DNA of 64,000 bases, taken from the IMG/VR virus record IMGVR_UViG_3300037743_000091. One strand, given 5' to 3'. The notes below the pieces were generated by a model, which worked only from the letters and a program-made list of their open reading frames with translations, did not search any database and had not been told where the DNA came from. Source of the stretch: a virus (Duplodnaviria > Heunggongvirae > Uroviricota > Caudoviricetes). A program made the position numbers and the translations under genes. Below, one piece after another: positions 17,082-32,485 of the stretch (the first letter of the stretch is position 1; each line of letters starts with the position of its first letter).

Positions 17082-17153
17082 GCTGGTCTGGCTGATCGGT
17101 TAGGTGCTCGCCTGCAAAGCGAGATCAAGCGGGTTCGAGTCCCGCCACCAGTT
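17082..17153 (+). tRNA. tRNA-Cys(GCA), tentative; D-arm atypical
   Basis: T-arm GCGGG-TTCGAGT-CCCGC. Anticodon arm CTCGC-CTGCAAA-GCGAG. Acceptor 6/7 paired. Confidence 0.4.
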
Positions 17154-17154
17154 C

Positions 17155-17226
17155 GGCCCGTTCGTCCAGCGGTCAGGATTCCGGACCTTCACTCCGGCGA
17201 CAGGGGTTCGACTCCCCTACGGGCTA
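17155..17226 (+). tRNA. tRNA-Glu(TTC), with C at position 33
   Basis: Acceptor GGCCCGT/ACGGGCT. D-arm GTCC..GGAT. Anticodon arm CCGGA-CCTTCAC-TCCGG. T-arm AGGGG-TTCGACT-CCCCT. Confidence 0.5.
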
Positions 17227-17227
17227 C

Positions 17228-17299
17228 GCGGTATTGGTCTAGTGGTTAAGGCACCAGGCTTCCACCCTGGAGACCCGGGTTCGATTCCCGGATACCGCT
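17228..17299 (+). tRNA. tRNA-Gly(TCC)
   Basis: Acceptor GCGGTAT/ATACCGC. Anticodon arm CCAGG-CTTCCAC-CCTGG. T-arm CCGGG-TTCGATT-CCCGG. Confidence 0.75.
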
Positions 17300-17300
17300 C

Positions 17301-17373
17301 GTCGCGTTCGTCTAGTTGGCCAGGACGCCGGTCCCTCACTCCGGAAACACGGGTTCGAATCCCGTACGCGGTA
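17301..17373 (+). tRNA. tRNA-like gene with an atypical, apparently 9-nt anticodon loop; identity unresolved
   Basis: Acceptor GTCGCGT/ACGCGGT. D-arm GTCT..AGGA. T-arm ACGGG-TTCGAAT-CCCGT. Anticodon region GCCGG-TCCCTCACT-CCGG. Confidence 0.4.
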
Positions 17374-17383
17374 CTGTCGAGAA

Positions 17384-17704
17384 ATGGCGCAACCTGAAAC
17401 CCTCCTGGTTAACAAGATCCGGGCCGCAGTCAAGAAGAAGTACCCTGACTCCGTCAGCTTCAAGGTTCACGGAGGCCCCTATCAAACTGGGGGAGTTCCT
17501 GACCTCCTGGTCTTCCTCAACGGCAAGGTGGCCGGATTCGAGGTGAAGAAACAGAAGCTTGGGGAGTCGGAGGAACATGCGCGGGAGCGCGCGACCCTTC
17601 GTCAACGCCTCCGGATTGACGCCTTCCGCAAAGCCGGGTGCCGCGCGGAGGTCGTGCTCTCCGTAGGCGAGGTGCTAACCGTCCTCGCGGACCTGGATAC
17701 GTAA
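17384..17704 (+). CDS. VRR-NUC domain nuclease
   Basis: GVPDLLVF ... GFEVK core of the VRR-NUC (PD-(D/E)XK) fold. 106 aa. Confidence 0.7.
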   Translation: MAQPETLLVNKIRAAVKKKYPDSVSFKVHGGPYQTGGVPDLLVFLNGKVAGFEVKKQKLGESEEHARERATLRQRLRIDAFRKAGCRAEVVLSVGEVLTVLADLDT

Positions 17705-17725
17705 CCATCCTGTTATCTCCCTGGG

Positions 17726-17769
17726 TTGCTAACTCCTGTGACTTCGTGTAATGTTACATATGTCAGCAC
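17726..17769 (+). promoter_or_regulatory. Conserved promoter/operator element: -35 TTGCTA, 17 bp spacer, -10 TAATGT, then TACATATGTCAGCAC
   Basis: Canonical spacing. 25 nt upstream of GGAGG + ATG 17795. Confidence 0.6.
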
Positions 17770-17794
17770 GGAACACCGAACCACGGAGGTCACC

Positions 17795-18046
17795 ATGAAC
17801 AGCACCCGCGAGGAACTGACCCAGGGCGTCAAGTCGTTCAGCGACAAGCTCCTGAACGACCTGCGGAACTCCGCGCACATGGACCGAGCGAACCTGGTCG
17901 AGAACATCACGGGCTACACGATCCCGGAGCGCTCGGAGAAGATCATGCACGTGGACACGATCATCTCCGTGATCGAGGAGGAGCAGGCGCGGCGTAGCGG
18001 ACTCGCTTCTTCGGGGGAGATCCTGGCAGCGTTCGGCGCGAACTGA
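17795..18046 (+). CDS. Hypothetical protein (83 aa)
   Basis: ATG after ACGGAGG RBS. Promoter-proximal. Confidence 0.5.
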   Translation: MNSTREELTQGVKSFSDKLLNDLRNSAHMDRANLVENITGYTIPERSEKIMHVDTIISVIEEEQARRSGLASSGEILAAFGAN

Positions 18047-18131
18047 CTCGCCCGGTGACGGCCCGCTTCTGCGGGACGTTGCCGAGTGGGTTAGCCCGCT
18101 ACGTCAGCACAACTACCGAAAGGAACCCACC

Positions 18132-19202
18132 ATGGTTCACGAAATCACTGACACGGACGCCATGTTTAGCGTCCGCGAAATGCCGTGGCATCGTCTCGGA
18201 ACGGTCCTCACGGACTACCCGACGCGCGAGGAGGCGCAGAAGATCGCCCACGACTGGGAGCCCGTGACGGCCCCGGTGTTCCGCCGCGTGGTCGGCGTCC
18301 ATACCCACGGGAACGAGTGCTACAGCGACTTCGGCTCCGGCGACCTGGAGTGTGAGCAGGCGGAGGGTCCGTTCTCCCGCTTCGAGGAGATCGAGGGACA
18401 GCAGGAGGTCGTCCGCTCGGACAACGGCCACCACATCGGCGTCACGAACGACACCCTCGGGATCGTCACGAACGATGAGATGTACGACATTGCGGAGGCT
18501 GTCCAGGGGCTCAGCGGGGACGTGATGTACGAGACCGGCGGTACCCTTCGCGGAGGCCGTCAGGTGTGGCTCCTCCTGCGCCTCGCGGAGCCCCTGGAGA
18601 TCAAGGGCGATCCTCGCGGCGCGACGATGCAGTACTTCGCCCTCCAGAACAACCACGACGGCGGGGGTTCGTTCCGGGGTCAGGCGATCAACACGAGGAT
18701 CGTGTGCGCGAACACGTCCCGCATGGCCGACATGGACGCCCGCGCCCACGAGACGGAGATCGTCTTCCGGCACACGAAGAACGTGGCGGAGCGCGTCGAG
18801 GAGGCGAAGCAGGCACTGGCCATGTGGCGTACCTCGATCAACGAGTGGCAGCTCTTCAACGAGCACCTGATCTCGTGCAAGATCACGCGGGAGCAGCGGG
18901 AGGAGTTTGTGGAGCGGTTCTTTCCGATACCGCCCACGGGTGTTTCCAAGCGCATGATGACCAACATCGAGAACGACCGGGGGAACCTGCGGGAGATCTT
19001 CGCAGGGGTCACCAGCGAGGGGATCGAGAACACGGCCTACGGCCTGGTTCAGGGTGCAGTGGAGTTCTCCCAGCACTACCGCGCGACCCGGGGCAAGAGT
19101 GACATGGCGCGCAACGAGAACCGTTTCCGCCGGTCCGTCCTGGACAAGGACAAGCTGGTCCGGGGCGCGGCGAAGCTGGCCAAGGAGATCGCCCTCGTGT
19201 GA
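18132..19202 (+). CDS. DUF932 (phage/plasmid-related) protein
   Basis: YFALQNNHDGGGSFRGQAINTRIVCANT block matches the DUF932 R.VC.N signature. 356 aa. GAAAGGAA RBS. Confidence 0.5.
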   Translation: MVHEITDTDAMFSVREMPWHRLGTVLTDYPTREEAQKIAHDWEPVTAPVFRRVVGVHTHGNECYSDFGSGDLECEQAEGPFSRFEEIEGQQEVVRSDNGHHIGVTNDTLGIVTNDEMYDIAEAVQGLSGDVMYETGGTLRGGRQVWLLLRLAEPLEIKGDPRGATMQYFALQNNHDGGGSFRGQAINTRIVCANTSRMADMDARAHETEIVFRHTKNVAERVEEAKQALAMWRTSINEWQLFNEHLISCKITREQREEFVERFFPIPPTGVSKRMMTNIENDRGNLREIFAGVTSEGIENTAYGLVQGAVEFSQHYRATRGKSDMARNENRFRRSVLDKDKLVRGAAKLAKEIALV

Positions 19203-19215
19203 TCCCCTGACCGTA

Positions 19216-19243
19216 GGACGGGCGGCCTTCGGGCCGCCCGTCC
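19216..19243 (+). terminator. I-shaped GC hairpin terminator (GGACGGGCGGCC-TTCG-GGCCGCCCGTCC)
   Basis: Perfect 12 bp stem immediately after the stop of 18132..19202, followed by TTCC. Confidence 0.5.
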
Positions 19244-19269
19244 TTCCGTGCAGTAGAAAGGATGGATAG

Positions 19270-19482
19270 ATGGCGCAGCGTAAGACGACCTTCGAGATGT
19301 GCGATAACCCGGAGTGCGGCAACGAGTACGAGGTCTTCAAGAGCGAACCCCTTCCGGGTTTTGTGATCACACGCGGTAGCTGGGACAACGGCGCGGGTGG
19401 GGGACCGATCCCTCAGACCTACGCGTGCTCCGTGGAATGCTTGCCCGCTGCCGTACTTTGCCGGATCGGGGAGGAGGGATGA
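19270..19482 (+). CDS. Zinc-finger protein (70 aa)
   Basis: CDNPECG ... CSVEC Cys4. AAAGGATGG RBS. Confidence 0.5.
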   Translation: MAQRKTTFEMCDNPECGNEYEVFKSEPLPGFVITRGSWDNGAGGGPIPQTYACSVECLPAAVLCRIGEEG

Positions 19483-19796
19483 GCGAGGAGTACGAGCCTC
19501 ACACTGAGGAGGAAGTACGCCAGAGCGCCGCTGACACACTCCGGCACGCCCGTCTCGATACCAAGGGGATCATCTGGGGTAAGAGGAGCAAGGATGATCG
19601 CCGGTCGGCGTGGCGCACCCTGGAGTCAGCTTCCCTGTCGGCGGCCTCCATGTGTGCCCAGTGGACGGCAGCGGGAGATCCGTTCGCCATGCACCAGGCG
19701 GTCAAGTGGGCTCGTGTGTTCGTCCTCCTGGACGATCGCCGTAAGCGCATGTTCAGGATGCACCGGGATCGTTTATTCGGGAGGTTTCTTAAATGA
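19479..19796 (+). CDS. Hypothetical protein (105 aa)
   Basis: ATGA overlap. GGGAGGAGGG RBS. Confidence 0.5.
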   Translation: MSEEYEPHTEEEVRQSAADTLRHARLDTKGIIWGKRSKDDRRSAWRTLESASLSAASMCAQWTAAGDPFAMHQAVKWARVFVLLDDRRKRMFRMHRDRLFGRFLK

Positions 19797-20167
19797 GGTA
19801 CCTCGGACCTCTTCCGTTCCCTGTGAGGACTCTTGGGGACGTGTGGGATCTTTCGGTACCGATTCCTCCACGCCGCCACCTCCGGACCTTGGGAGATTTC
19901 TGGGACCTGCCGGACGTGGTTATCCGTGTCCTGGAGATGCGGGAGAGGGAACAGGAGGAAGAGGACATGGACGAGGACGACGAGTGGACCGAGGAGGACG
20001 ACGCGGAGGAGGGATGGAGGCAGTACAGGTACGCGAAGAATCAGGTACTCGCTGCTCGGAAGATCCTCGACGACCTCGAACGAGCCCTGGAAGACGCGGT
20101 ACGTCTTCGTGAGTTCCGTCAGGAATTCAGGCGCATTACTAATAGCTCCCACTTCTACCGGGGGTGA
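19793..20167 (+). CDS. Hypothetical acidic protein (124 aa)
   Basis: TAAATG overlap. GGAGG RBS. Glu/Asp-rich central stretch. Confidence 0.45.
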   Translation: MRYLGPLPFPVRTLGDVWDLSVPIPPRRHLRTLGDFWDLPDVVIRVLEMREREQEEEDMDEDDEWTEEDDAEEGWRQYRYAKNQVLAARKILDDLERALEDAVRLREFRQEFRRITNSSHFYRG

Positions 20168-20190
20168 CATAACAGGGTTACAGTGCAGGC

Positions 20191-21099
20191 ATGGCCGAAG
20201 AATCGTTCTACCTGTTGGAACACAAGAATCCACACCTCGATCAGTACGGGGAGGAACGTCGATACGACCAAACACCGTCAGGCACTATCGTCATTCACAC
20301 GGCGGAGAACGTCGCGGATCAACTCGGGGGAGACCTCGGGGCGGAGAACGTAGCGGCCTATGTCGTGAGGCGGACGAACCACGGTTCTTATCACCGGCTC
20401 GTCGATGCTGATTCCATTATTAAGATGGCGCCTTTCGGGTACGAAACGTGGCATTGCCGTAATACCAATCCGTGGTCCATCGGTATTTCCATGGCGGTCA
20501 TGGCTGACGACTGGGATAAGTACTCGGACGATTACGTGATGCGAGTTCTCCGCAATGCGGCTCGTGCGGCAGCGGAAGCAGTTCGGGACCTTAAGAAGTA
20601 TTGGAAGGTCACAGTCCCCCTCGAACACATCACGGGATCTCAGGCGCTTGCCAAGCGCCCGGGATTCACTGGACACGGAGAGACGGACCCGACTCGACGG
20701 CACGACCCCGGCTCCGGGTTCCCGTGGGCTCGTTTCCTGAATCTGGTTCGCGAGGAACTGGGAGACGACCCGATCGAAGCGGAACCGGTCAACAACCCGA
20801 TCACTCCCGCCAAGCCCAAGCCCGCCCCGAAACCGAAGGGAACCGAATACCGCATGAACCGTCTCGACTTGCGTACCGCGCACCGTACAAAGATCTATAA
20901 CGACGATATGAAGAAGTGGCAAGGGCTGCTGCTCGCCCACGGTTACGGTCCGCGCGGTCTCGTGGAGACCACTGGACGGCCGGATGGGATCGGCGGTGCC
21001 TATACGCGGCGTGCGACGCTGGCCTTCCAGAAGAAGGCGGGTATCGAGGAGGACGCCGTGGTCGGCCCTATCACCTGGAAGAAGGCCCTGGAGGGGTAA
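20191..21099 (+). CDS. Endolysin: N-acetylmuramoyl-L-alanine amidase (amidase_2/PGRP-like) with C-terminal peptidoglycan-binding domain
   Basis: IVIHTAE ... GHGETDPTRRHDPGSGFPW amidase_2 motifs. C-terminal PG_binding_1 repeat (WQGLLLAHGY ... DGIGGAYTRRATLAFQKKAGIEEDAVVGPITWKKAL). Confidence 0.75.
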   Translation: MAEESFYLLEHKNPHLDQYGEERRYDQTPSGTIVIHTAENVADQLGGDLGAENVAAYVVRRTNHGSYHRLVDADSIIKMAPFGYETWHCRNTNPWSIGISMAVMADDWDKYSDDYVMRVLRNAARAAAEAVRDLKKYWKVTVPLEHITGSQALAKRPGFTGHGETDPTRRHDPGSGFPWARFLNLVREELGDDPIEAEPVNNPITPAKPKPAPKPKGTEYRMNRLDLRTAHRTKIYNDDMKKWQGLLLAHGYGPRGLVETTGRPDGIGGAYTRRATLAFQKKAGIEEDAVVGPITWKKALEG

Positions 21100-21314
21100 T
21101 GGCGGGACGTAATTCAACGATCCAGGATTCTTACGGAGAATCCCGGAAGAAGTTCGAGGCGTCACTGGAGTTCGGGACTCACGACTTCGTCGGCCAGTTG
21201 GCCTACGCTCGTGACCCTGCCCGTGTTCTGTACGATCGTCAGCAGGCGATGCGTCGCTCTACCATCGAGCGGGGACGTAAGAAAATCCCCATGAGAGGAC
21301 AGAACATTGAGTGA
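21099..21314 (+). CDS. Hypothetical protein (71 aa) within the lysis cassette
   Basis: TAATG overlap with the endolysin stop. GGAGGGG RBS. Confidence 0.4.
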   Translation: MAGRNSTIQDSYGESRKKFEASLEFGTHDFVGQLAYARDPARVLYDRQQAMRRSTIERGRKKIPMRGQNIE

Positions 21315-21585
21315 CTTCGTTCGATCTGCGATCCGTACGGGTGTCCCGTACATCGTCGGTGCCCTGCTCTCTTGGCTCACGGCGCGGGGGATCGATATTC
21401 CTCCGGAGGGTGAGGCGGGGCTGATCGCGTTCTTGACCGCGTTGTTCGGCGCGGTTTACTACTTGACGGTTCGGGCCCTGGAGAGTCGTTGGCCTAAGCT
21501 CGGGGTTCTTCTCGGGTCGGCTACGGCTCCGGAATACCGGGGACCGGACTCCAAGGGGGTTACCTCGAAGGAGACGCAGGACTGA
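21307..21585 (+). CDS. Holin-like membrane protein (TTG start)
   Basis: Two hydrophobic helices (VPYIVGALLSWL; LIAFLTALFGAVYYL). Directly downstream of the endolysin. GAGAGGA RBS. Confidence 0.45.
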   Translation: MSDFVRSAIRTGVPYIVGALLSWLTARGIDIPPEGEAGLIAFLTALFGAVYYLTVRALESRWPKLGVLLGSATAPEYRGPDSKGVTSKETQD

Positions 21586-21652
21586 CCCCGGCGGCTGCCG
21601 GTCCGTTATCCCACTGTTATACGGATCGGTAGTCGCCCTCTCTTGGATGTGG

Positions 21653-21673
21653 TAATGTTACGAACGTCAGCAC
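21653..21673 (+). promoter_or_regulatory. Conserved promoter core (TAATGTTACGAACGTCAGCAC), divergent -35
   Basis: Same -10/+1 block as the family. 30 nt upstream of the HicA-like gene. Confidence 0.5.
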
Positions 21674-21703
21674 AACGTACGGTACGACATCCCGGAGGGC
21701 ACA

Positions 21704-21904
21704 GTGAACAGGGAACTACGAGAACTCCTTGCGGAACTGGATAAGCAGGGGTTCAAGTACAAGGTGACCAAGAAGGGTCACGTCATGATCAAGACGGCCG
21801 ATAATAAGCCGGTGACCACGTTCTCCGGTACCCCGAGCGATATTCGTTCGTGGAAGAACAGTATAAGCCGTTTGAAGCGGGCCGGTTTCGAGGATGAGGG
21901 TTGA
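21704..21904 (+). CDS. hicA: HicA-like toxin (mRNA interferase family)
   Basis: 66 aa. LRELLAELDKQGFKYKVTKKGHVMIKT ... SDIRSWKNSISRLKRAGF follows the HicA/YcfA pattern (helix-GW-KGSH-h-h, then a C-terminal basic helix). GTG start after GGAGGG. Confidence 0.55.
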   Translation: MNRELRELLAELDKQGFKYKVTKKGHVMIKTADNKPVTTFSGTPSDIRSWKNSISRLKRAGFEDEG

Positions 21905-21915
21905 AAGGAATAAAG

Positions 21916-22176
21916 ATGGAAGAGACCCGGGAGCAGTTCAACGTCACCCTTACTCTCAGTGGTGAGTTGAGTGACCGGGAGGTGGGGAGGCTGATTGACG
22001 GTCTGGTGGGCATGTCTCCCGCCATCGCACATGAGGGCGAGATCGTCGTCACCGTGACCGCAATCAATCACTCCGAGGCTCTGGTTAAGGCCGGAATAGA
22101 AGCGAAGAGATTCATGGGGGACATCGTTCAGGCCGTCATCCTCACTACCGAAGAATTCGATAAGGACAACGAGTAG
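21916..22176 (+). CDS. Possible HicB-like antitoxin (UPF0150-like)
   Basis: 86 aa acidic protein immediately downstream of hicA-like gene (toxin-first order). Weak resemblance only. Confidence 0.3.
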   Translation: MEETREQFNVTLTLSGELSDREVGRLIDGLVGMSPAIAHEGEIVVTVTAINHSEALVKAGIEAKRFMGDIVQAVILTTEEFDKDNE

Positions 22177-22198
22177 GTATCGACCGAGGGAGTAACCC

Positions 22199-22534
22199 AT
22201 GATGACCGATCGCAAGAAGACAATGAGGTGGAGTGTGGTGCTCGGCGCATCACTGCTCATCTTTACCGGTGGGTGGTTCACCGGGCACAGCACTGCACGC
22301 GTCGAGAAGGTCGTCATTGAGCCCTCGGAAGCGTGCTTGGCCTCCTCGCAGTACGGGCGCGTTTACGTAGCCCGTGAGCGGCAGGAGAACCTGATCCTCC
22401 TTAATCAGGAAGAGCACAGCGACGAGAAGGTCCGTGAGTTGTTGCAGGCCAACGCGGAACGTAAGCAGAAGGCATCCGTTCTCTGGCGCTCATTCGAGGA
22501 TCAGTGCCAGGTCGATCTCCAGGAGGGGTCATGA
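22199..22534 (+). CDS. Membrane-anchored protein (N-terminal TM)
   Basis: WSVVLGASLLIFTGGWF helix. GGAG RBS. Confidence 0.45.
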   Translation: MMTDRKKTMRWSVVLGASLLIFTGGWFTGHSTARVEKVVIEPSEACLASSQYGRVYVARERQENLILLNQEEHSDEKVRELLQANAERKQKASVLWRSFEDQCQVDLQEGS

Positions 22535-22827
22535 CTCGCGTATTCAGTGATGCCGTCCTCGCAAAGTCTCGTAGTTACCTGGCCAATGGGCACGTTCATC
22601 GTGATGCCGAAGCGGAAAACATGTGGTGGGTTCAGGGTGCGGACCTCATGAACAGTCGCCCGTACCGGGTTCAGGTAGTCATGGATGGGGATCTGATCCT
22701 CACCCGAACCTGTACGTGCGAGCACGGGAAGAACGCGGGAGGGTCGGCCACGTGTTCGCACGTTGCGGCTGCTCTCATTCGTAAACAGCAGATCGACAAA
22801 GAAGGGGGTACAGCAGATGACGAGTAA
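22531..22827 (+). CDS. SWIM zinc-finger protein
   Basis: C-x-C-x11-C-x-H (RTCTCEHGKNAGGSATCSH). GGAGGGG RBS. ATGA overlap. Confidence 0.5.
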   Translation: MTRVFSDAVLAKSRSYLANGHVHRDAEAENMWWVQGADLMNSRPYRVQVVMDGDLILTRTCTCEHGKNAGGSATCSHVAAALIRKQQIDKEGGTADDE

Positions 22828-23029
22828 TAAGGGCGAAGATGAGGAGTTGCTGACTCCGGCGGAAGTGGCTCACCTGTTCCGTGTGGACGTCAAGACGGTT
22901 GCGCGATGGGCGCAGATCGGCAGAATCCCTCGCGATCAGGTGATCATCACCCTGGGCGGGCACCGCCGGTACAAGGCCCGGTTCATCCGGTCTCTGCTGC
23001 TGAGCGAGGGAGAGAATGACGCAGGATGA
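22817..23029 (+). CDS. Helix-turn-helix DNA-binding protein (excisionase/MerR-like HTH_17)
   Basis: LTPAEVAHLFRVDVKTVARWAQIGRIP motif. Confidence 0.55.
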   Translation: MTSNKGEDEELLTPAEVAHLFRVDVKTVARWAQIGRIPRDQVIITLGGHRRYKARFIRSLLLSEGENDAG

Positions 23030-23198
23030 TGTGTTGTTCCTGGTCCTGCTGATTGCGGGTTGCTTGCTCGTGGTCGGGTGCGGGATCGAACTGCTGTTGT
23101 GGATGCTCAGGGTGTCGATGCGCATGGGCGGGGGCGTGTGGCTGTGGGGCGCGACGTGCGTCGGTGCGGTCGTGTTCATGAACCATCTTGCGTGGTAA
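23016..23198 (+). CDS. Small membrane protein (60 aa)
   Basis: GAGGGAGAG RBS. Two hydrophobic segments. Confidence 0.4.
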   Translation: MTQDDVLFLVLLIAGCLLVVGCGIELLLWMLRVSMRMGGGVWLWGATCVGAVVFMNHLAW

Positions 23199-24015: not shown

Positions 24016-24036
24016 TAATGTTACGTACGTCAGCAC
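24016..24036 (+). promoter_or_regulatory. Conserved promoter core (TAATGTTACGTACGTCAGCAC)
   Basis: 22 nt upstream of AAAGGAAG + ATG 24059. Confidence 0.5.
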
Positions 24037-24058: not shown

Positions 24059-24337
24059 ATGGGTCTCTTGAACGGTCTCTTCGGACTCAGCGAGCCGACC
24101 CCGGAAGAGCGGCGCAAGGCGCGGAACGACAAGCGCGAGACGCGCCGGATCGTGGGTGAGCGTGACACGGGCGAGATCGCGGACGCCACGGCGGCCGGTT
24201 CCCTGTCGATCGACGTCGAGCGTGACGGTTCCGGCGTGACGAGCAAGGCATACAACCGGCGCGGGAACTCGTGGCCCGGTCAGCGGATCTCCGAGACCCC
24301 GGCGGAAGAGCCCAAGAAGGGCAGCCTGGGCTGGTGA
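24059..24337 (+). CDS. Hypothetical protein (92 aa)
   Basis: Promoter-proximal. Basic N-terminal region. Confidence 0.5.
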   Translation: MGLLNGLFGLSEPTPEERRKARNDKRETRRIVGERDTGEIADATAAGSLSIDVERDGSGVTSKAYNRRGNSWPGQRISETPAEEPKKGSLGW

Positions 24338-24483
24338 CCGACCCGGACGACAAGCTTCTTGCTGCCCTCTCCGAGAAGGACACGTGCGTTCACTGCACGT
24401 GGGAGGTCACCAACTTCACGGAGTACGTGGAGCACCTGGCCAAGGAGCACCCGGAGCACGGGAATCCCAAGACATACGGCTGA
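24334..24483 (+). CDS. C2H2-type zinc-finger miniprotein (49 aa)
   Basis: C-x2-C-x12-H-x5-H (CVHCTWEVTNFTEYVEHLAKEH). GTGA overlap. Confidence 0.4.
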   Translation: MTDPDDKLLAALSEKDTCVHCTWEVTNFTEYVEHLAKEHPEHGNPKTYG

Positions 24484-24538
24484 ACCACACCGGAGGGGCG
24501 CATATTGCGCCCCTCCGGGCTACATGGAAGAGAGCACG

Positions 24539-25471
24539 ATGAATTCACCTACCTTGGTGATCACCAGGGGTCTGCCCGGAGCGGGAAAGGCCACGTTTGC
24601 CCGGCGCTGGGTGGACGAAGATCTGGAGAAGCGCATACGGGTTAACTACCGTGATCTTTACACGTCGATGTATGGACGGAGTAGGCCCCCTCGGGAACCT
24701 CAGAAGAACAGCGTCCGGAAGGCCCAGCACGCACAAGTTCAGGCGCTCCTGCTGAGTGGCATAAGCGTCGTTGTGGATGACGAGAACCTGGTTCTTCGGG
24801 ACGCTCGTGCTTTTGCTGACCTTGCCCTGCGTACCGGGGCTGAGTTTCAGGTGAGGGACTTTACGGATGTCTCCCTGTCGGAGTGCATTCAGCGTGACGC
24901 CGGGCGCGTGTTTTCGGTAGGGGAGCAGACGATTCGGGACCTGTACCGGCGGTACAAGTTCCCTCTGCCGAAGGTGGAGCCGACACCGCGTCGAGCCGGT
25001 GAGCGCCCGGCGTGGTACAAGCCGCATGACACCTCCGCAATCCCGACCGTCATCGTGGATCTGGACGGCACCCTGGCTCGCAACATCACGAATCGGGAGA
25101 TGTGGGGCCCCAGGTTCGAGGAGCGCGTTTACGAAGACGAGGTGAACCAGTCTGTTCTTCGGTTCATTACTGGATGGCTCATGCAGGGGTATGAACTGAT
25201 CTTCATGTCGGGGCGTGCGGAGATCTCTCGCGCTGAGACGATGCGCTGGCTCTTCGATAAGGCGGGCATCCGTGAGGATGAATACGAGCTGTTCATGCGT
25301 CGAAACGGGGATGGTCGGCACGACTATGAGGTCAAGGCCGACCTGTTCGAGGAGCACGTTCGCCCCTACTACGCGAACGTGGCCCTGGCGATCGACGATC
25401 GGAATCAGGTCGTGGATCTCTGGCGCGGGATTGGCCTGGAGTGCTGGCAGGTTCGCGACGGAGACTTCTAG
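24539..25471 (+). CDS. pnk: Polynucleotide 5-prime-kinase/3-prime-phosphatase (T4 Pnk-like)
   Basis: N-terminal P-loop kinase (TRGLPGAGKATFARRW). C-terminal HAD phosphatase motif I (VIVDLDGTLA). GGAAGAGAG RBS. Confidence 0.7.
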   Translation: MNSPTLVITRGLPGAGKATFARRWVDEDLEKRIRVNYRDLYTSMYGRSRPPREPQKNSVRKAQHAQVQALLLSGISVVVDDENLVLRDARAFADLALRTGAEFQVRDFTDVSLSECIQRDAGRVFSVGEQTIRDLYRRYKFPLPKVEPTPRRAGERPAWYKPHDTSAIPTVIVDLDGTLARNITNREMWGPRFEERVYEDEVNQSVLRFITGWLMQGYELIFMSGRAEISRAETMRWLFDKAGIREDEYELFMRRNGDGRHDYEVKADLFEEHVRPYYANVALAIDDRNQVVDLWRGIGLECWQVRDGDF

Positions 25472-25884: not shown

Positions 25885-25885
25885 C

Positions 25886-26690: not shown

Positions 26691-26896
26691 TGGGCTGGAT
26701 TCACGGTAAAAGCTCGGTTCACCGTTGCCCTCCGCTTCCGGTTCTGTGGTGGCCCCAGACTGGACGCATGGTGACGTGCGCGGAATGCGGCACCAGATAT
26801 GTCGTTCAGGGAAGCCGTTGGGTGTGGCAGGGGGTTCCGCCTAAGCCCTCGAACCGGATAGCCGAGGAGATCGCGGAGGACCGTTATGACGCCTGA
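26687..26896 (+). CDS. Zinc-ribbon protein (69 aa)
   Basis: CPP ... CAECGTRY. GTGA/TGATG overlap. Confidence 0.4.
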   Translation: MMGWIHGKSSVHRCPPLPVLWWPQTGRMVTCAECGTRYVVQGSRWVWQGVPPKPSNRIAEEIAEDRYDA

Positions 26897-27176
26897 ACCC
26901 CGGAGGTACCGCAAGAAGCCTCTGTCTGTGATCGCCATGCAGTGGTCCGAAGAGGCCGTATTTAATGATTTGGTTCTGTTCGCTAACTACCTTATTCGGG
27001 TAGATAGCGCAGGCCCGATTCGCTATTTCGTGTATGACCGGCTGCACGATACCTGGGTCGAATTCAAGCGTGGGGATTGGATCGTCCAGGGGGTGAAGGG
27101 GGAGTTCTATCCGGTTGAAGAAGTTGTCTTCGCAGAAACGTACGAGCAAGTGGGATTCGACCCCGAGGAGTGGTAA
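26886..27176 (+). CDS. Hypothetical protein (96 aa)
   Basis: GGAGGA RBS. Confidence 0.45.
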   Translation: MTPEPRRYRKKPLSVIAMQWSEEAVFNDLVLFANYLIRVDSAGPIRYFVYDRLHDTWVEFKRGDWIVQGVKGEFYPVEEVVFAETYEQVGFDPEEW

Positions 27177-27180
27177 GCGC

Positions 27181-27453
27181 ATGAATGATTCGGAAAATCT
27201 GGTAACCCGTCCGATGCGTCGAGCACTGGACTTCCTGTATCCCCGGCCGGACGGTAGCGAGTATGAGGGCTGGGAGGTTACCAACGTGCGAGAAGTACTG
27301 CGTGCTGCACTCGCAGAGGAGCGGGACTTTCTGATAGCTCGCCTGCACTCGGAGGAGTGTCCGTACGATTCCATGATTTGTGAGTGTGACATGGACTGGT
27401 ATAGCTCACACGTGGACACCGTAATCACGCACATCCTCGGGAGTTCGGAGTGA
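27181..27453 (+). CDS. Hypothetical protein (90 aa)
   Basis: GAGGAG RBS. Cys cluster CPYDSMICECD. Confidence 0.45.
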   Translation: MNDSENLVTRPMRRALDFLYPRPDGSEYEGWEVTNVREVLRAALAEERDFLIARLHSEECPYDSMICECDMDWYSSHVDTVITHILGSSE

Positions 27454-27725
27454 GACTCAAGCTCGACCACAGGCCGACTCTTTTCATGCGTTCCCCGCTG
27501 TGCGGGACGTGCTGGGTCGATCTGGAGTACGACGCAGATGGTATGACGTGCCCGAACTGCGGTACCTACTGGGATCATGAGGACGCCGAGGACGGGGCTG
27601 AGGGGAAACTTCCAGAGGACTGGGACGACCTCCCCGGGCTTCCGATCGACGAAGACCAGGCGCGCACGATCGCACTGGAGCAGGAGCGGGAGACGTTCGC
27701 CGCGTGGAAGAGGCGTCGGGAATGA
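27450..27725 (+). CDS. Zinc-ribbon protein (91 aa)
   Basis: CGTC ... CPNCG. GTG after GGGAG. Acidic C-terminus. Confidence 0.45.
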   Translation: MRLKLDHRPTLFMRSPLCGTCWVDLEYDADGMTCPNCGTYWDHEDAEDGAEGKLPEDWDDLPGLPIDEDQARTIALEQERETFAAWKRRRE

Positions 27726-27730
27726 TGTGC

Positions 27731-27750
27731 TAATGTTACGTACGTCAGCA
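27731..27750 (+). promoter_or_regulatory. Conserved promoter core (TAATGTTACGTACGTCAGCAC) directly after a stop codon
   Basis: 22 nt upstream of GAAGGGG + ATG 27773. Confidence 0.5.
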
Positions 27751-27772
27751 CGTCCGATCGGAAGGGGTCAAG

Positions 27773-27952
27773 ATGAACAGCAGGAGATGGGTCACTGCCG
27801 GAGTCGGCCTCGCGCTGGGATACGTAGTCGTGTCCTGCGCGTTCGCCGGGCTCTGGTGGCCGCTGGGCGCCCTGGTTGCCCTGTGGGTTGCCGCGTTCGC
27901 CTGGACGAACACGAGCACGCGGGCAGTCTGGAGGCGTAACACAGGTGACTAA
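27773..27952 (+). CDS. Small membrane protein (59 aa), not in the ORF track
   Basis: Read manually: MNSRRWVTAGVGLALGYVVVSCAFAGLWWPLGALVALWVAAFAW ... Two TM helices. Promoter + RBS. Confidence 0.45.
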   Translation: MNSRRWVTAGVGLALGYVVVSCAFAGLWWPLGALVALWVAAFAWTNTSTRAVWRRNTGD

Positions 27953-27959
27953 GGGACCG

Positions 27960-28109
27960 ATGCTGCGCGGGGAATGTCCCGCGTGTGGAAGGTTCATGCC
28001 TCTCCGGAAAAACGGGAAGCTGATCATGCATTTGCCCCGGGAACTGATCAACACACCATCCGCTCCGCGTTACCAGTGCCCGGGATCGTCGAAGCCACCG
28101 AAGAAGTGA
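27960..28109 (+). CDS. Zinc-ribbon miniprotein (49 aa)
   Basis: CPACGRF ... CPGSS. AAGGGA RBS. Confidence 0.4.
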   Translation: MLRGECPACGRFMPLRKNGKLIMHLPRELINTPSAPRYQCPGSSKPPKK

Positions 28110-28148
28110 AGAGGTAGACGCCTCATTACAGGTGGGGCGTCTACCTAA

Positions 28149-28373
28149 ATGGATGAAGTTCACGAATGGAACAGGAGGGGTCCGGTGACTAGCTGGCTCC
28201 GTGGCTTCTGGTGTTGGCTTACTTCGCATGACTGGGTGGAGGTCTCCTCACCGGTGAGAGGGGGGACTCACCTGCACGTCGTGGGTGGGTGCGGTAGGTG
28301 CGGCCTTCGTCGAGAAGACACGGTGACCAACGAGGAATGGATACACGGATATCCACGAAGGGAGTGGGGATGA
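28149..28373 (+). CDS. Hypothetical protein (74 aa)
   Basis: ORF with Trp-rich N-terminus and CGRCG. Confidence 0.4.
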   Translation: MDEVHEWNRRGPVTSWLRGFWCWLTSHDWVEVSSPVRGGTHLHVVGGCGRCGLRREDTVTNEEWIHGYPRREWG

Positions 28374-28753
28374 GTAGCTTCGGCGAGGACGTGACTGACG
28401 CCATGGCGGAGGAGATGGCCCGGAAGTACTGGGGTAAGCACTGGTCTGACCTTCCCGAACCTCAGCGTGAGCCCGAGAAGAGGCGCATGGCGTCCTTCCT
28501 CCGGTTCGCTGCCCCGATGCTCGAACAGTGGGCTACGGAACTCCTGGAGAGGGAGCGCACGGGTCACACGGCGACTGCCCAGGAGCGCGACGGGTGGAAG
28601 CACCGCGCCGAAGTGGCGGAGGAAGCCCTGGCGGAGGTACAGGCCCTCGTGAATGACGGTGTACGCCATCTCCGGGGAACGACGATGGAGGGGGACATGG
28701 TGGCCGACTTCATTCCCGTGACCTCCTTGAAGAGGGCATTGGTGGCGCGATGA
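28370..28753 (+). CDS. Hypothetical protein (127 aa)
   Basis: GAAGGGAGTGGGG RBS. ATGA overlap. Confidence 0.5.
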   Translation: MSSFGEDVTDAMAEEMARKYWGKHWSDLPEPQREPEKRRMASFLRFAAPMLEQWATELLERERTGHTATAQERDGWKHRAEVAEEALAEVQALVNDGVRHLRGTTMEGDMVADFIPVTSLKRALVAR

Positions 28754-29025
28754 GCGGGTATCTGGACGACCCCACGGCCGTAGCGAAGGAGGCCCTTCGC
28801 GAGTTCGTGGGAGACGGTGAGGGTGCCGACGAGTGGGTACTCATGGCGCATGACGCTCAGGTGCGGGCGCAGGCGTTCGAAGAGGCCGCAGAGGCGTTTG
28901 ACCTCGATGTCGCCTCGGTTGCGTTCACTGCATCGGACGGTTACCAGAGTGTTGGGGTCTACACCAACGAGGAGGCGAAAGTCATCGTGAAGGCTTGGCT
29001 GAGGGAGAGGAAGGGGCCCGGGTGA
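28750..29025 (+). CDS. Hypothetical acidic protein (91 aa)
   Basis: ATGA overlap. Confidence 0.5.
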   Translation: MSGYLDDPTAVAKEALREFVGDGEGADEWVLMAHDAQVRAQAFEEAAEAFDLDVASVAFTASDGYQSVGVYTNEEAKVIVKAWLRERKGPG

Positions 29026-29312
29026 AGACTTGCACCTATCGCATTCCCTTCGGGGCCGCGTACTTCACGTGCGGGGGAGATCACACGACGGAACAGCACA
29101 ACGCCCACGTCAATGCCGCATACGTAGACGGCCTGCGGTTCGCCGCTGACATCGTGCATAAGGAGGCGCGTTGGCAGATGGAGCGGTCCATGCGGAGTAT
29201 GCAGAGGGTCGGGAAGGCGTTGGCCCTGGGTATCTCAGAGCGCATGACCGTGACGGAGAACGCCATCCGGGCTGTGATCGAGACCGTGAGTCCGAGGAAG
29301 GATGACACGTGA
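29022..29312 (+). CDS. Hypothetical protein (96 aa)
   Basis: GTGA overlap. GGAGAGGAAGGGG RBS. Confidence 0.45.
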   Translation: MKTCTYRIPFGAAYFTCGGDHTTEQHNAHVNAAYVDGLRFAADIVHKEARWQMERSMRSMQRVGKALALGISERMTVTENAIRAVIETVSPRKDDT

Positions 29313-29704
29313 GTGAGGTAGGCAAGACTCCGGTTGAGCAGGCGGGGCGGGCCGTAGCTGCTCACGCCCTGGAGACCTGGGGACTCGGCGTCCCTGTGTA
29401 TCTCTGTAAGGACGACGAGAACAATCCTCGTGGGGATTGGGACCACCCCACGACTGCCGCGCATGAAGTGGCTCAGGCAGCCGTCCTGGCCGCTGTCTCC
29501 GACCTGGAAGGCTTGGCACGGGTGTTGCTGGAGCACGCGGCAGAGATCTGGTCTTTGGGTGATGTCGAGTGTTCGTGCCGAAAGTTTGAGTCTCGAATTG
29601 ACTGGGAGTACGGGGAGACCTCAGCTCATCGTAGCCGGAACCTCGACGCCCACAGGGAGCACGTAGCCCGGGAGATCTTCTATTACCTGACAGGTAGGAG
29701 CTGA
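29309..29704 (+). CDS. Hypothetical protein (131 aa)
   Basis: GTG after GAAGGATGA. Confidence 0.5.
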   Translation: MSEVGKTPVEQAGRAVAAHALETWGLGVPVYLCKDDENNPRGDWDHPTTAAHEVAQAAVLAAVSDLEGLARVLLEHAAEIWSLGDVECSCRKFESRIDWEYGETSAHRSRNLDAHREHVAREIFYYLTGRS

Positions 29705-29723
29705 AATTAATCCTCAAGAGGCG

Positions 29724-29882
29724 ATGCACCAGGTAGCAGATGAACTTGCACGCCTTCGTGAAATGGCCGATGGGTTCCGCGCTCAAATGATAGAGAACGG
29801 GTGGAGTAAGGAGTTCTCTCAGGAAGTCTCGGCTCATCTCCTCAAGGAAATGATTTTGAAATCATTTGACAGAGGGAAATGA
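29724..29882 (+). CDS. Small protein (52 aa) in a locally AT-richer segment, not in the ORF track
   Basis: Read manually: MHQVADELARLREMADGFRAQMIENGWSKEFSQEVSAHLLKEMILKSFDRGK. AAGAGG RBS. Confidence 0.35.
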   Translation: MHQVADELARLREMADGFRAQMIENGWSKEFSQEVSAHLLKEMILKSFDRGK

Positions 29883-29896
29883 AGGGAGGAGTGGCT

Positions 29897-30079
29897 ATGA
29901 ATAGCGACGCAGATACGGAATACGCAAGGGCCCTTCAAGCGTGGATTTCAGCTAATAAGCGATTGTCCGATGCGCGTAAGCGACAGGCTGCACGGAACTT
30001 GCGTGCGTTGGCCGCTTTCACTGAGTCCGTGGCAGGCGCAATCGAAGGAGTCGATAATGCAGAGCTTTCTCCACGCTGA
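29897..30079 (+). CDS. Hypothetical protein (60 aa)
   Basis: GAAGGGAGGAG RBS. Alternative ATG 29879 overlaps the upstream stop. Confidence 0.4.
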   Translation: MNSDADTEYARALQAWISANKRLSDARKRQAARNLRALAAFTESVAGAIEGVDNAELSPR

Positions 30080-30479
30080 GGCGTCGGTGCGTAAGTTCGG
30101 TGGATCAGTGGCCGACTACCTTCCCATTCATGAGTTCATCGACGAGAGCAAGAAGTGGGTCGGGGACGTACGGCATCGGGCTATGCGTCATCACACGGCA
30201 GGTCCGTGGATGGCGCAGGAGAAGTTCGGGGTCGCGATCGAGATTCACAACGAGGACGGAACGCCGATCCTCAACAAGCACGGCAGACCCAAGCGGGTAA
30301 TCGTGCGGGACATCGCAGAGAACCACATCGTGGAAGACCTCGGTTGGATTCCCTCTCCGGCGGATTGGCTCTCCTGCATGGAGTGCAAAACGTGGATGGG
30401 CGGGAAGAGAAATAAGGTCATGAGCCGGGCGGGCGTTGCCCGGAAGTTCGCGGAATCGCAGAAGGAGAACAACGCATGA
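30057..30479 (+). CDS. Hypothetical protein (140 aa)
   Basis: AAGGAG RBS. Confidence 0.5.
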   Translation: MQSFLHAEASVRKFGGSVADYLPIHEFIDESKKWVGDVRHRAMRHHTAGPWMAQEKFGVAIEIHNEDGTPILNKHGRPKRVIVRDIAENHIVEDLGWIPSPADWLSCMECKTWMGGKRNKVMSRAGVARKFAESQKENNA

Positions 30480-30976
30480 ACGAGCAGCGCAGCATCTCGG
30501 GTCGTCCGATCACGGGAAACGTCGAGCACTACACGAGCCCTCGCGGTCCCCAGGGAACGGCTGAGGAGTTCCTGGCGGAGGTGGATCAAGCCTTCGCCAC
30601 GGTTCCCGGTCTCCTGCGGATTCGGTGGCACCAGTACACGCCGTACTTCAACGACGGAGAGCCCTGTGTCTTCGAGATCCACGGCGTCTACTTCGAGCTT
30701 GAGTGGACTACGGGCGACGAGTACGGGGACTACGAGGATGGCTTCGTGGATGAGTGGGACCTCTACACCCGGGACTATTCGCAACCCGGTAAGAGCCAAC
30801 CCGTGTACAAGGTGGACGGACGCGACACGGAGGCCGAGTACACGGCGGTCAAGGCAGCAATGACGGGCCTGGCCTCTGGTCGGTACCACGACGTGGTGCA
30901 GGAGGCGTTCGGCGACCCGGCGAAGGTGACAGCCTCTCGTGACGGTTTCGACGTGGAGTTCTACGAGCACGACTAA
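30476..30976 (+). CDS. Hypothetical protein (166 aa)
   Basis: ATGA overlap. Confidence 0.5.
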   Translation: MNEQRSISGRPITGNVEHYTSPRGPQGTAEEFLAEVDQAFATVPGLLRIRWHQYTPYFNDGEPCVFEIHGVYFELEWTTGDEYGDYEDGFVDEWDLYTRDYSQPGKSQPVYKVDGRDTEAEYTAVKAAMTGLASGRYHDVVQEAFGDPAKVTASRDGFDVEFYEHD

Positions 30977-30991
30977 GGGAGGAGGTGCCCC

Positions 30992-31567
30992 GTGATGTGG
31001 AAACAGGTACTCGTGTGCGTGGTTTTCGCCGTGACCGTTCCGTCTCCGGAACCGTCATCCGTACCCACGGAAACACCGGTTCCTGAGCCGAGCGTGACAT
31101 CTCCGGCACCCGTGACACCTAGCGTGACCCCTGATCCGGACCCCACACCGACTCTCACGGAGGTACCCGAACCTAGCCCGACAGCACCCAGTTCTCCTCC
31201 GGTTCCGGAACCCGTGCCTCGTGTGACGCCAACCACGGAACCGACTTCGGACCCGTCGCCTACAGGGCGGGTATCCGAGTCTCCGAACCCGGCCCCCTCG
31301 GAACCCGTGACGGTAGGGAGGAAACCTTCGGCATCTCCCGAGCCCACTGTTACAGGGGGCTCACCGACGAAGGTCGAGGAAGTGTGTTCCTCCCCTTCCC
31401 CGGAGTGCTTTACAGGATCAGAGATTACTTCGGGTTACTCCGAGTTCGTGGGGGAAGTCCTGGAATTCCTTCTGGGAGTTACGTTGGCCGGGGGCCTCGT
31501 ATGGCTTTGGTACCGGAAAAACCGTACGGCTGTATACAACTGGCTCCGTGAACCTAAGCACTCATAA
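30992..31567 (+). CDS. Pro/Thr/Ser/Glu-rich membrane-anchored protein (signal peptide + C-terminal TM)
   Basis: N-terminal hydrophobic leader. About 130 aa low-complexity PEPS/PTPT repeats. C-terminal TM (LEFLLGVTLAGGLVWLWY) followed by RKNR. GGAGGAGG RBS. Confidence 0.5.
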   Translation: MMWKQVLVCVVFAVTVPSPEPSSVPTETPVPEPSVTSPAPVTPSVTPDPDPTPTLTEVPEPSPTAPSSPPVPEPVPRVTPTTEPTSDPSPTGRVSESPNPAPSEPVTVGRKPSASPEPTVTGGSPTKVEEVCSSPSPECFTGSEITSGYSEFVGEVLEFLLGVTLAGGLVWLWYRKNRTAVYNWLREPKHS

Positions 31568-31576
31568 GGAGGGTGA

Positions 31577-32485
31577 ATGAATCAGGAGCGTAAGAATGTC
31601 TCTATCGGGGACGAGGAGATCGCTCGACGGAACGAGATCCTTCGTACAAGAGCGGGCTCCGAAGTATTCGGAATGGCCCTTCCTGGTACAAGCGATCAGG
31701 ACGAGATGGGTGTCTACGTCGAGACGCAGGAACAGCTTCTTGGGCTGGCCCCGTCCTCGGAGCACTACACCTTCCGTACTCAGCCGGAAGGTATGCGCTC
31801 AGGGCCGGGAGATACTGATCTGACCCTGTACTCGTTGCGTAAGTACATGCGCCTCGCGTGTGCCGGGAATCCTACGGTCCTGACGCCGTTGTTCGTGGAG
31901 CCCCAGCACGTCCTTTCTGGGACGGTGGTCGGGGGTGCTCTGCGGAACCTCGCGCCGTTCATCGTTTCCCGGCGGGCTGGGTGGCGGTTTCTCGGGTACC
32001 TGGAGAGTCAGCGTGAGCGCATGGTCGGCGGCGGTCGGCAGAGCCGAGTCCCCAAGCGTCCGGAGTTGATCGAGAAGCACGGGTATGACACCAAGTACGC
32101 CAGTCACGCCTTGCGTCTCGGACTCCAGGGAATCCAGTTGGTGTCCAGAGGCTACCTGCCGCTGCCCATGGATGAAGAGTTCTTGGAAACGTGCATGGAG
32201 GTTAAGCGCGGGGAGGTGGATTTCACCGAAGCATTGAGACGCGTGGATGTAGCACGTGAACGACTGCGGGAATGCATAGAAAACGGCACATCCCCTCTCC
32301 CGCCACAACCCAACATGCAGTACATCAATGCGTGGATGGTTCAGGCACATAAGGAGCATTGGCGGGTCGAAAGAATGGCTCGGTACATGAAGGCAGACTC
32401 CACATATCAGTCAATCCTCTTTCGTGAAGCCGCTGCGACGACTCGACTAGACCGGGACGAAACATTCAGTCTCGGTCCCCAGTAA
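31577..32485 (+). CDS. Pol-beta-superfamily nucleotidyltransferase
   Basis: GS-x9-D-x-D signature (RAGSEVFGMALPGTSDQDEMGVYVE). 302 aa. Confidence 0.55.
   Translation: MNQERKNVSIGDEEIARRNEILRTRAGSEVFGMALPGTSDQDEMGVYVETQEQLLGLAPSSEHYTFRTQPEGMRSGPGDTDLTLYSLRKYMRLACAGNPTVLTPLFVEPQHVLSGTVVGGALRNLAPFIVSRRAGWRFLGYLESQRERMVGGGRQSRVPKRPELIEKHGYDTKYASHALRLGLQGIQLVSRGYLPLPMDEEFLETCMEVKRGEVDFTEALRRVDVARERLRECIENGTSPLPPQPNMQYINAWMVQAHKEHWRVERMARYMKADSTYQSILFREAAATTRLDRDETFSLGPQ

Follow-up and report, generated by a model that had tools for sequence, protein, structure and literature searches.

A ligase-less variant of a phage RNA-repair gene set with a substituted Pnkp kinase domain

We analysed a 64,000-nucleotide stretch of DNA from a Caudoviricetes virus (IMG/VR record IMGVR_UViG_3300037743_000091), hereafter called the window, with respect to a T4-type polynucleotide kinase/3'-phosphatase (Pnkp), a Pol-beta nucleotidyltransferase of the RlaP family and nine tRNA genes. 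On balance, we favour the explanation that these genes make up a ligase-less, cut-down variant of the phage tRNA-repair module, which would heal and extend RNA 3' ends while the phage tRNAs serve as replacements. The phosphatase half of Pnkp has all its catalytic residues, essential residues of the kinase half are substituted, and no RNA ligase was found in a total of about 76.8 kb, namely the window and 12.8 kb of extensions obtained from metagenome contigs and an IMG/VR contig. At the same locus, a related phage carries an RNA ligase together with an intact kinase. Pnkp, RNA ligase and RlaP are known parts of the phage answer to tRNA-cutting defences, and they usually travel together. An earlier note made from the sequence of the window had interpreted the genes as a T4-like toolkit for tRNA repair and had asked who ligates the healed ends. 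The RNA-repair families and the missing ligase of that interpretation held up, its bifunctional kinase and its suggested CCA-adding activity did not, and the answer to its question is probably "nobody". The features that carry this reading are the following.

17082..17374, + strand: tRNA cluster 1, Cys-GCA, Glu-TTC, Gly-TCC and Glu-CTC (ARAGORN; spacers 0 nt)
24484..24538, no strand: empty ligase slot, 55 bp intergenic; in L200 and L205 a T4 Rnl1-type (PF09511) gene overlapping the Pnkp start is found here
24539..24988, + strand: N-terminal P-loop kinase-like domain of Pnkp, aa 1-150, with GAGKAT as Walker A and NYRDLY replacing NRDDLR
25040..25471, + strand: C-terminal HAD (DxDxT) 3'-phosphatase domain of Pnkp, aa 168-310 (Pfam HAD_PNKP; catalytic residues all conserved)
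31577..32485, + strand: RlaP-family Pol-beta nucleotidyltransferase, 302 aa (Pfam RlaP PF10127, 4e-24, 86.1 bits, cutoff 23)
59175..59582, + strand: tRNA cluster 2, Asn-GTT, Ser-TGA, Tyr-GTA, Asp-GTC and Gln-TTG (ARAGORN; spacers 2-7 nt)

Pnkp keeps its phosphatase motifs and has a substituted kinase half

The T4-Pnk-like open reading frame (ORF) at 24539-25471, as predicted in the earlier note, encodes 310 residues that match Pfam AAA_33 (5e-14) and HAD_PNKP (8.6e-39) and align along their entire length with T4 Pnk (1LTQ, 5e-27) and Capnocytophaga Pnkp1 (4XRP, 4e-30). The product thus has the two-domain architecture of a T4-type Pnkp, with a P-loop domain of the AAA_33 type at its N terminus and a HAD_PNKP domain at its C terminus, and homologs were found in 2442 records of annotated phages. 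The catalytic Asp of the HAD DxDGT motif, whose lack the earlier note had named as a point against its own proposal, is present on alignment (D174, D176, G177, T178). In an alignment of 29 homologs, D174, D176, T178, S224, K266, D286 and D287 are invariant, so that the Ser, Lys and DDR motifs are included. All of the T4 phosphatase residues Asp165, Asp167, Ser211, Lys258 and Asp278 are matched in the window protein, and the catalytic roles of the T4 residues have been established (PMC3592404).

The kinase half differs. T4 kinase needs Lys15, Ser16, Asp35, Arg38, Asp85 and Arg126, and Glu57 positions Arg38 (PMC2831316). At the positions of Lys15, Ser16, Asp35, Arg38, Asp85, Arg126 and Glu57, our alignments placed K, A, R, Y, D, R and K, and a profile built from canonical sequences only yielded the identical register for the kinase motifs. 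The window protein does not have the set of residues essential to a T4-type Pnkp kinase. Its three closest Pnkp relatives, P0002-P0004 (67-69% identity), deviate at the same motifs as listed here.

Walker A (T4 GK[S/T]T): window GAGKAT, Ser16 to Ala; P0002-P0004 GCGARE, with Lys15 lost too
Acceptor site (NRDDLR): window NYRDLY, Arg at Asp35 and Tyr at Arg38; P0002-P0004 SYRRMA
Glu57: window Lys; P0002 Gly; P0003-P0004 Glu

Among the 120 best Pnkp homologs from a search of 5.8 billion proteins, the phosphatase motifs DxDGT and DDR were present in all 120, and canonical kinase motifs were present in 116, the only deviants being the window protein and P0002-P0004. Since essential kinase residues are substituted, the enzyme has probably lost its kinase activity and is unlikely to be bifunctional, as judged from these alignments. 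Of the bifunctional kinase/3'-phosphatase assigned in the earlier note, the phosphatase half, with its invariant motifs, was therefore retained and the kinase half was not. The label "polynucleotide kinase" is probably wrong for the kinase half of such genes, and the degraded alleles offer natural kinase-null variants for structure-function study.

The substituted domain has nevertheless been kept. Omega of the kinase domain was 0.17 within the kinase-dead clade and 0.61 across the branch of the transition between dead and intact kinases, and the phosphatase domain gave 0.14 and 0.20, respectively. This pattern indicates that the kinase domain changed in a burst and then came under renewed constraint, and that it is not decaying. 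Because purifying selection keeps the domain, it probably serves a non-kinase role, e.g. in assembly or RNA binding.

The RNA ligase is replaced by a 55-bp gap in an alternative cassette

That no RNA ligase is evident, as the earlier note had remarked for the window, was borne out for the window and its extensions by searches of different kinds. Pfam gave no RNA ligase in the predicted proteome or in the Pfam annotation already computed for the left and right ends, PHROGs gave none among the window proteins, and tblastn with five ligases of relatives gave none in the window. Two ligase profile hidden Markov models (HMMs) run against all six-frame ORFs of the window and of its extensions L006, L012 and L022 gave a best E-value of 0.077, which belonged to an antisense match inside the terminase gene; as a positive control, the same search recovered the ligases of relatives at 1e-60 to 1e-220. 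Candidates with the ligase motif K-x-[DN]-G were rejected, as only nuclease, terminase and structural ORFs matched. Hence Pnkp is accompanied by no Rnl1, Rnl2 (PF09414) or RtcB ligase in the 76.8 kb of this incomplete genome.

The position at which a ligase would be expected can be seen by comparison with L200, a metagenomic relative (Logan SRR26081735_229944). L200 and the window have the same gene order, with AAA_24, DUF669, tRNAs, DUF932, an amidase and two small ORFs upstream of Pnkp. The two small ORFs of the window are as follows.

24059..24334, + strand: small ORF, homolog of a 96-aa gene of L200 (tblastn 60% identity, E = 4e-28)
24346..24483, + strand: small ORF, homolog of the 52-aa gene directly before Rnl1 in L200 (tblastn 40%, E = 8e-10)

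In L200, a 368-aa T4 Rnl1-type ligase (PF09511) follows, its stop overlapping the start of a Pnkp with a canonical kinase (GSGKTT, NRDDLR), and RlaP lies 3 kb downstream. In the window, the corresponding 55 bp hold no ligase remnant in any frame. L203 has the configuration of the window, with a dead kinase, RlaP present and no ligase within 10 kb. L200 and L203 share about 90% nucleotide identity up to the small ORF and again right after the Pnkp stop; between these flanks, counterparts of the ligase and of the 5' part of Pnkp are lacking, and the remainder of Pnkp is 69% identical. As the flanks are about 90% identical and the two differ by the cassette only, the comparison indicates that "ligase plus intact kinase" and "no ligase plus degraded kinase" are alternative cassettes of one locus. 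The allele of the window, with its ligase absent and its kinase substituted, is thus the ligase-less alternative to Rnl1 plus intact Pnkp and probably not the T4-like heal-and-seal set that had been proposed for it.

Six kinase-intact homologs were examined (Zaria, Circinus, Bantam, L200, L204 and L205), and each of them has a ligase gene at most 5 kb away from Pnkp; at the slot upstream of Pnkp, none of the three kinase-degraded genomes has one. This agrees with the strict co-occurrence of Pnk with RNA ligase that has been published for mycobacteriophage clusters E, J and L (PMC3706429). The individual parts are known and common; what is new is that the complete cassette has an alternative that lacks the ligase and carries a degraded kinase.

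The nucleotidyltransferase belongs to the RlaP family

The nucleotidyltransferase at 31577..32485 was confirmed and could be assigned to RlaP, the "RNA ligase-associating Pol-beta" family, which is tied to RNA repair and of which T4 NrdC.11 is a member (PMC12776372, PMC7824862). RlaP was the sole Pfam match at E <= 0.01 for this product, which also matches phrog_388 "nucleotidyltransferase" at 2.4e-55. An MNT-type or aminoglycoside-type enzyme, the outcome that the earlier note had seen as contradicting it, is not indicated: NTP_transf_2 or a related Pfam family was not found at the same threshold, and no HEPN or toxin gene was seen next to RlaP in the Pfam and PHROGs annotation. The motif given there as GS-x9-DxD is actually GS-x11-DxD. 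Across seven RlaP sequences including T4 NrdC.11, residues G27, S28, D40, D42, D81, K173, H177, R180 and Q184 are invariant, so that the catalytic GS, DxD and third Asp as well as the helical-domain residues are intact in the window protein. It is 67% identical to the RlaP of L200, and an omega of 0.07 between L200 and L203 points to purifying selection. Homologs occur in 754 records of annotated phages, mostly actinophages; a search of the Protein Data Bank (PDB) with the sequence gave no match at E <= 0.1, and a single-sequence scan of IMG/VR gave only relatives of at most 35% identity.

According to a December 2025 preprint, two Pseudomonas RlaPs add one or two nucleoside monophosphates (NMP) to the 3'-OH ends of RNA, prefer a mimic of cleaved tRNA, are inactive on DNA and on 3'-phosphorylated RNA, and show little nucleoside triphosphate (NTP) specificity (PMC12776372). 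This extension by one or two NMP was demonstrated for the Pseudomonas enzymes only. RlaP was proposed to replace nucleotides lost to nucleases such as RloC before ligation (PMC12776372, PMC7824862), and in jumbo phages its distribution mirrors that of ligases (PMC7824862). An RNA ligase gene is located in the neighbourhood of RlaP in Bantam and L200, and none is so located in the 76.8 kb of this phage, in DirtyBoi or in L203.

The RlaP gene is followed by a gene of the WDGH family.

32500..32988, + strand: WDGH-domain protein (Pfam PF25311, 5.8e-31)

The WDGH protein is 77% identical to that of L200. WDGH is apart from RlaP in L200 and L203 and is present without RlaP in L199; literature searches on "WDGH" returned nothing relevant. 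The last ~35 residues of RlaP (32378-32485) match a small ORF of L203 (16154-16222; 61% over 23 aa, E = 1e-6) that sits about 1.6 kb downstream of the L203 RlaP. From this match, the tail of RlaP and its adjacency to WDGH read as the trace left by a deletion, about 1.6 kb long, that fused two reading frames, and RlaP and WDGH were accordingly ruled out as a functional pair.

Nine tRNA genes

ARAGORN identified exactly nine tRNA genes in the window, confirming the four and five of the earlier note and placing them at 17082-17374 and 59175-59582. The identities named there for the second cluster were correct, and those of the first, which had been left unnamed, are Cys, Glu, Gly and Glu. Variants of cluster 1 are kept in the relatives L199 and L200. 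By inspection, CCA is encoded by none of the nine genes. The nine tRNAs most likely supply replacement tRNAs, and it is plausible that they replace cleaved host tRNAs (compare PMC10264068). As a separate observation, cluster 2 sits at an unusual site for tRNA genes, flanked by a Mu-F-like gene and the capsid/protease gene inside the head-morphogenesis module.

A proposed heal-and-extend function and its alternatives

In related actinophages, the module is complete and comprises an RNA ligase and a Pnkp whose kinase is active, in many cases along with RlaP and tRNA genes. In the cut-down form, metal-independent host RNases would leave RNA ends with a 2',3'-cyclic phosphate or 3'-phosphate, which the phosphatase would first turn into 3'-OH ends, as the phosphatase of T4 Pnkp does in making RNA-OH from RNA>p (PMC3592404), and RlaP would then add one or two nucleotides to them. 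Since the 3'-OH product of the phosphatase is the only substrate that RlaP accepts, the two activities would make a coherent heal-and-extend pairing. The 5'-phosphate would not be made, and classical ligation would not follow: an Rnl-type ligase needs a 5'-phosphate, of which the kinase is the sole supplier, so that an impaired kinase together with a missing ligase makes resealing unlikely. Sealing by a host RtcB would also be disfavoured, because RtcB needs the 3'-phosphate that the Pnkp phosphatase removes (PMC3592404). RNA 3' ends would thus be healed and extended, and broken anticodon loops would not be resealed. Judging from the gene content and the substitutions, T4-style healing and sealing is probably not operating here.

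Several observations weigh against this explanation, and they are best considered with the two alternatives that they would favour. The first alternative is full T4-style healing and sealing, in which a working Pnkp heals the ends, RlaP restores trimmed nucleotides, and broken tRNAs are sealed by a ligase of the host or one encoded in genome sequence still missing. The window Pnkp retains its P-loop lysine (Lys17), Asp85 and the equivalent of Arg126, and a one-residue register shift would restore Asp35, though not Arg38, so that some kinase activity, residual or altered, may persist. The kinase domain is under purifying selection. Mammalian PNKP is functional without a counterpart of Arg38. 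The genome is incomplete, our rightward walks having stalled, and a ligase could be encoded in the missing part. In L199, which has a dead kinase, a ligase does occur at a distance from Pnkp: a minimal 226-aa PF09414 protein 8 kb downstream. Furthermore, the correlation between degraded kinase and missing ligase rests on one evolutionary event, as all three genomes with a degraded kinase belong to a single clade. The parallel distributions of RlaP and ligases in jumbo phages (PMC7824862) also agree with a sealing function. However, Ser16, Arg38 and Glu57 are substituted, Asp35 is replaced according to both alignment methods, and the P-loop Lys is gone from the sister proteins. Both the syntenic ligase slot and the position corresponding to the L199-type ligase are empty in the window, 76.8 kb contain no ligase, and the phosphatase takes away the 3'-phosphate on which a host RtcB would depend (PMC3592404). 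We therefore regard complete healing and sealing as unlikely.

As a side observation, the L199 protein (18791-19471) is ligase-like by PF09414, phrog_548 and the motif KLDGTN, and it is without the extra domains of the 430-460-aa actinophage ligases.

The second alternative is that no toolkit exists. In that case, Pnkp would be a phosphatase for DNA or nucleotide 3'-phosphates, RlaP would act alone on some RNA, and the tRNAs would contribute codon supply or tRNase evasion, without functional links among them. A distance of 6 kb separates Pnkp from RlaP, the two genes lie in consecutive but different promoter-element units (see below), and the adjacency of RlaP and WDGH appears to be a deletion artefact. 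L199 has Pnkp without RlaP within 10 kb, and Gordonia phage DirtyBoi, whose complete genome measures 43.8 kb, encodes an RlaP (41% identity) without annotated Pnk, ligase or tRNA; RlaP must act alone in such small temperate phages. Because Pnkp and RlaP each occur without the other, their coupling is not obligate, and both families are very common in phages, as the numbers of records above show. On the other hand, Pnkp and RlaP co-occur in the window, L200, L203 and Bantam, the substrate required by RlaP is the product of the phosphatase, and RNA end healing is the established role of the Pnkp family (PMC3592404). Functionally unlinked genes are accordingly a doubtful explanation of the set.

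In hosts with tRNA genes that do not encode CCA, an enzyme that adds it is present already, and this counts against a role of RlaP in maturing the phage tRNAs. Although the tRNA genes lack CCA and the first four abut directly, CCA addition by RlaP is highly improbable, because neither Pfam nor NCBIfam gave a match to a CCA-adding enzyme or poly(A) polymerase head domain, the RlaPs that have been characterised extend RNA by only one or two nucleotides and discriminate little among NTPs (PMC12776372), and DirtyBoi has RlaP without an annotated tRNA.

Returning to the favoured heal-and-extend reading, a more far-reaching form of it is speculative and has, in our estimate, a low probability: the degraded-kinase Pnkp and RlaP may constitute a stable, ligase-independent pathway of RNA 3'-end repair in which the kinase domain has been repurposed for a non-catalytic role. 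The phosphatase would act on the 2',3'-cyclic phosphate or 3'-phosphate left by a host RNase, e.g. at the tRNA acceptor end, the lost nucleotides would be rebuilt by RlaP or by the CCA enzyme of the host, and the former kinase domain, with omega at 0.61 and then at 0.17, would be an RNA-binding or assembly module. If true, phage RNA repair would have a second mode, free of ligation, whose cassette alternates with that of Rnl1 plus Pnkp. In this natural ligase-less, kinase-mutated allele, the phosphatase, the kinase-like fold and RlaP are all under purifying selection. The allele permits a direct test of a ligation-free function for RlaP and a 3'-phosphatase.

Comparison with known systems

The T4 set comprises PseT/Pnkp, Rnl1, Rnl2, the RlaP-family NrdC.11 and eight tRNAs. 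T4 and the window share the Pnkp architecture, with identical phosphatase residues, and the catalytic residues of NrdC.11, and both phages encode tRNAs. Unlike T4, the window phage has neither Rnl1 nor Rnl2, and Ser16, Asp35, Arg38 and Glu57 of the kinase are substituted. The likeness is limited to the genes and does not imply that the window genes counter an anticodon nuclease. Compared with the L200 layout of Rnl1, Pnkp, RlaP, NUDIX and WDGH, the window has 55 bp in the Rnl1 slot and a degraded kinase. Mycobacteriophages Omega and Cjw1 (clusters J, E and L) have actinophage Pnkps of the same family together with tRNA genes, as does the window, but their Pnk always occurs with the RNA ligase that is missing here. 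The Omega and Cjw1 enzymes are cited in PMC3706429 as having been characterised biochemically by Zhu, Yin and Shuman in 2004.

The early block of Gordonia phage Bantam contains the full module, with RlaP (gp99), a small ORF (gp100) and RNA ligase (gp101), then Pnk (gp113) and further on DUF6915 (gp127) and phrog_9564 (gp128). Bantam and the window have the same set of families, with the DUF6915/phrog_9564 pair upstream of RlaP in the window and after Pnk in Bantam. Unlike the window, Bantam has a PF09414 ligase beside RlaP and a canonical kinase. The transferases of the Pseudomonas RtcB-RlaP-RtcA operons (PfRlaP and PaRlaP; PMC12776372) belong to the same Pfam family as that of the window; in contrast to it, they are cellular, are encoded beside a 3'-phosphate ligase and fall into a different sequence cluster.

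Promoter-like elements and gene layout

The gene layout is marked by a promoter-like element, which has 14 copies in the window compared with 0.05 expected by chance. It consists of a -35-like GGGTTGC, a spacing of about 17 nt and TG-n-TAATGTTACGTAYGTCAGCAC, with a conserved TAATGT region and a Shine-Dalgarno (SD) sequence and ATG 20-35 nt downstream. All copies are co-oriented with the genes in both arms. Because conservation runs well beyond the -10 region, the element suggests the site of a phage-specific regulator or a conserved leader. A scan for sigma-70 promoters and terminators in general gave hits fewer than, or no more than, those in shuffled sequence. The copies and the genes between Pnkp and RlaP are listed below.

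1986(-), 9020(-), 15388, 17749, 21653, 23266, 24016, 27731, 37472, 40068, 41984, 61916, 62431, 63571: copies of the promoter-like element
24016..24030, + strand: core of the promoter-like element heading the Pnkp unit, one of the 14 copies
27731..27745, + strand: core of the promoter-like element heading the RlaP unit; the next copy is only at 37472
30057..30479, + strand: DUF6915 gene (Pfam PF21866, 3.3e-36; 59% identity to Bantam gp127)
30476..30976, + strand: phrog_9564 gene of unknown function, conserved partner of DUF6915 (PHROGs 4e-30; 42% to Bantam gp128)

DUF6915 is kept downstream of Pnkp in the relatives and in Bantam.

Genome fragment, probable host and other genes

The window is a phage genome fragment with a G+C content of 61%. 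No close match was found among 50,697 annotated phages, and megablast of 9 kb of the window against annotated phages gave zero matches. The minus strand carries replication genes up to about 13.5 kb; these are followed by a long plus-strand block of small genes and then by 7-deazaguanine genes, terminase, portal and capsid. Contigs of several public metagenomes matched the window at 99.6-100% identity, an IMG/VR contig overlapped it at 100% identity, and the extension loci were 99.6-100% identical to it. Since tail genes are absent from the ~76.8 kb, the genome is incomplete, with perhaps 10-20 kb still missing. Coverage ends about 11 kb beyond the right end of the window, where a walk with a tape-measure-like gene yielded only distant relatives, both in IMG/VR and in metagenome contigs. 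To the left, a walk with a Band-7 protein in IMG/VR found nothing, and exact-protein look-up extended the sequence by 1.8 kb only. Contigs of two independent samples stop at the window start or at most 1.8 kb to its left (L022 11474-13237), and a physical genome end may therefore lie near window position 1. A relative sought among genome contigs for host inference was not found. The host is probably actinobacterial (Actinomycetota), because the closest homologs of the window proteins come from actinophages and Promicromonosporaceae genomes.

A lysin A-like gene (Amidase_2 plus PG_binding_1; 20191-21099) sits midway in the block of small genes, well away from the structural genes, and has the same placement in L199, L200 and L203. 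Adjacent paralogs at 45527-45934 and 45912-46457 match phrog_18067 (function unknown) and look like a tandem duplication. The far left end (14-1126, minus strand) encodes a Band-7/SPFH-domain membrane protein; a link to RNA repair is not evident here, and Burroughs and Aravind reportedly connected some RNA-repair neighbourhoods with Band-7 proteins. An HNH_3 endonuclease gene of atypical composition (~36276-36782) is inserted between the genes for a CmcI-like methyltransferase and a family-2 glycosyltransferase. A presence/absence polymorphism of this gene between the window and related contigs was ruled out, as the contigs are 99.98-100% identical to the window.

Immediately upstream of terminase, a 7-deazaguanine (preQ0-type) cluster (49921-53950) encodes a TGT/DpdA-like transglycosylase, QueC, QueD and QueE, and a GTP cyclohydrolase I was called for it in an identical Logan contig. 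The product of 49921-51192 is the queuine tRNA-ribosyltransferase/DpdA-like protein (phrog_7068, 4.5e-74), the only large protein without a Pfam match. This cluster probably indicates DNA modification. The tRNA cluster near it holds three of the four queuosine-family tRNAs (Asn, Tyr and Asp).

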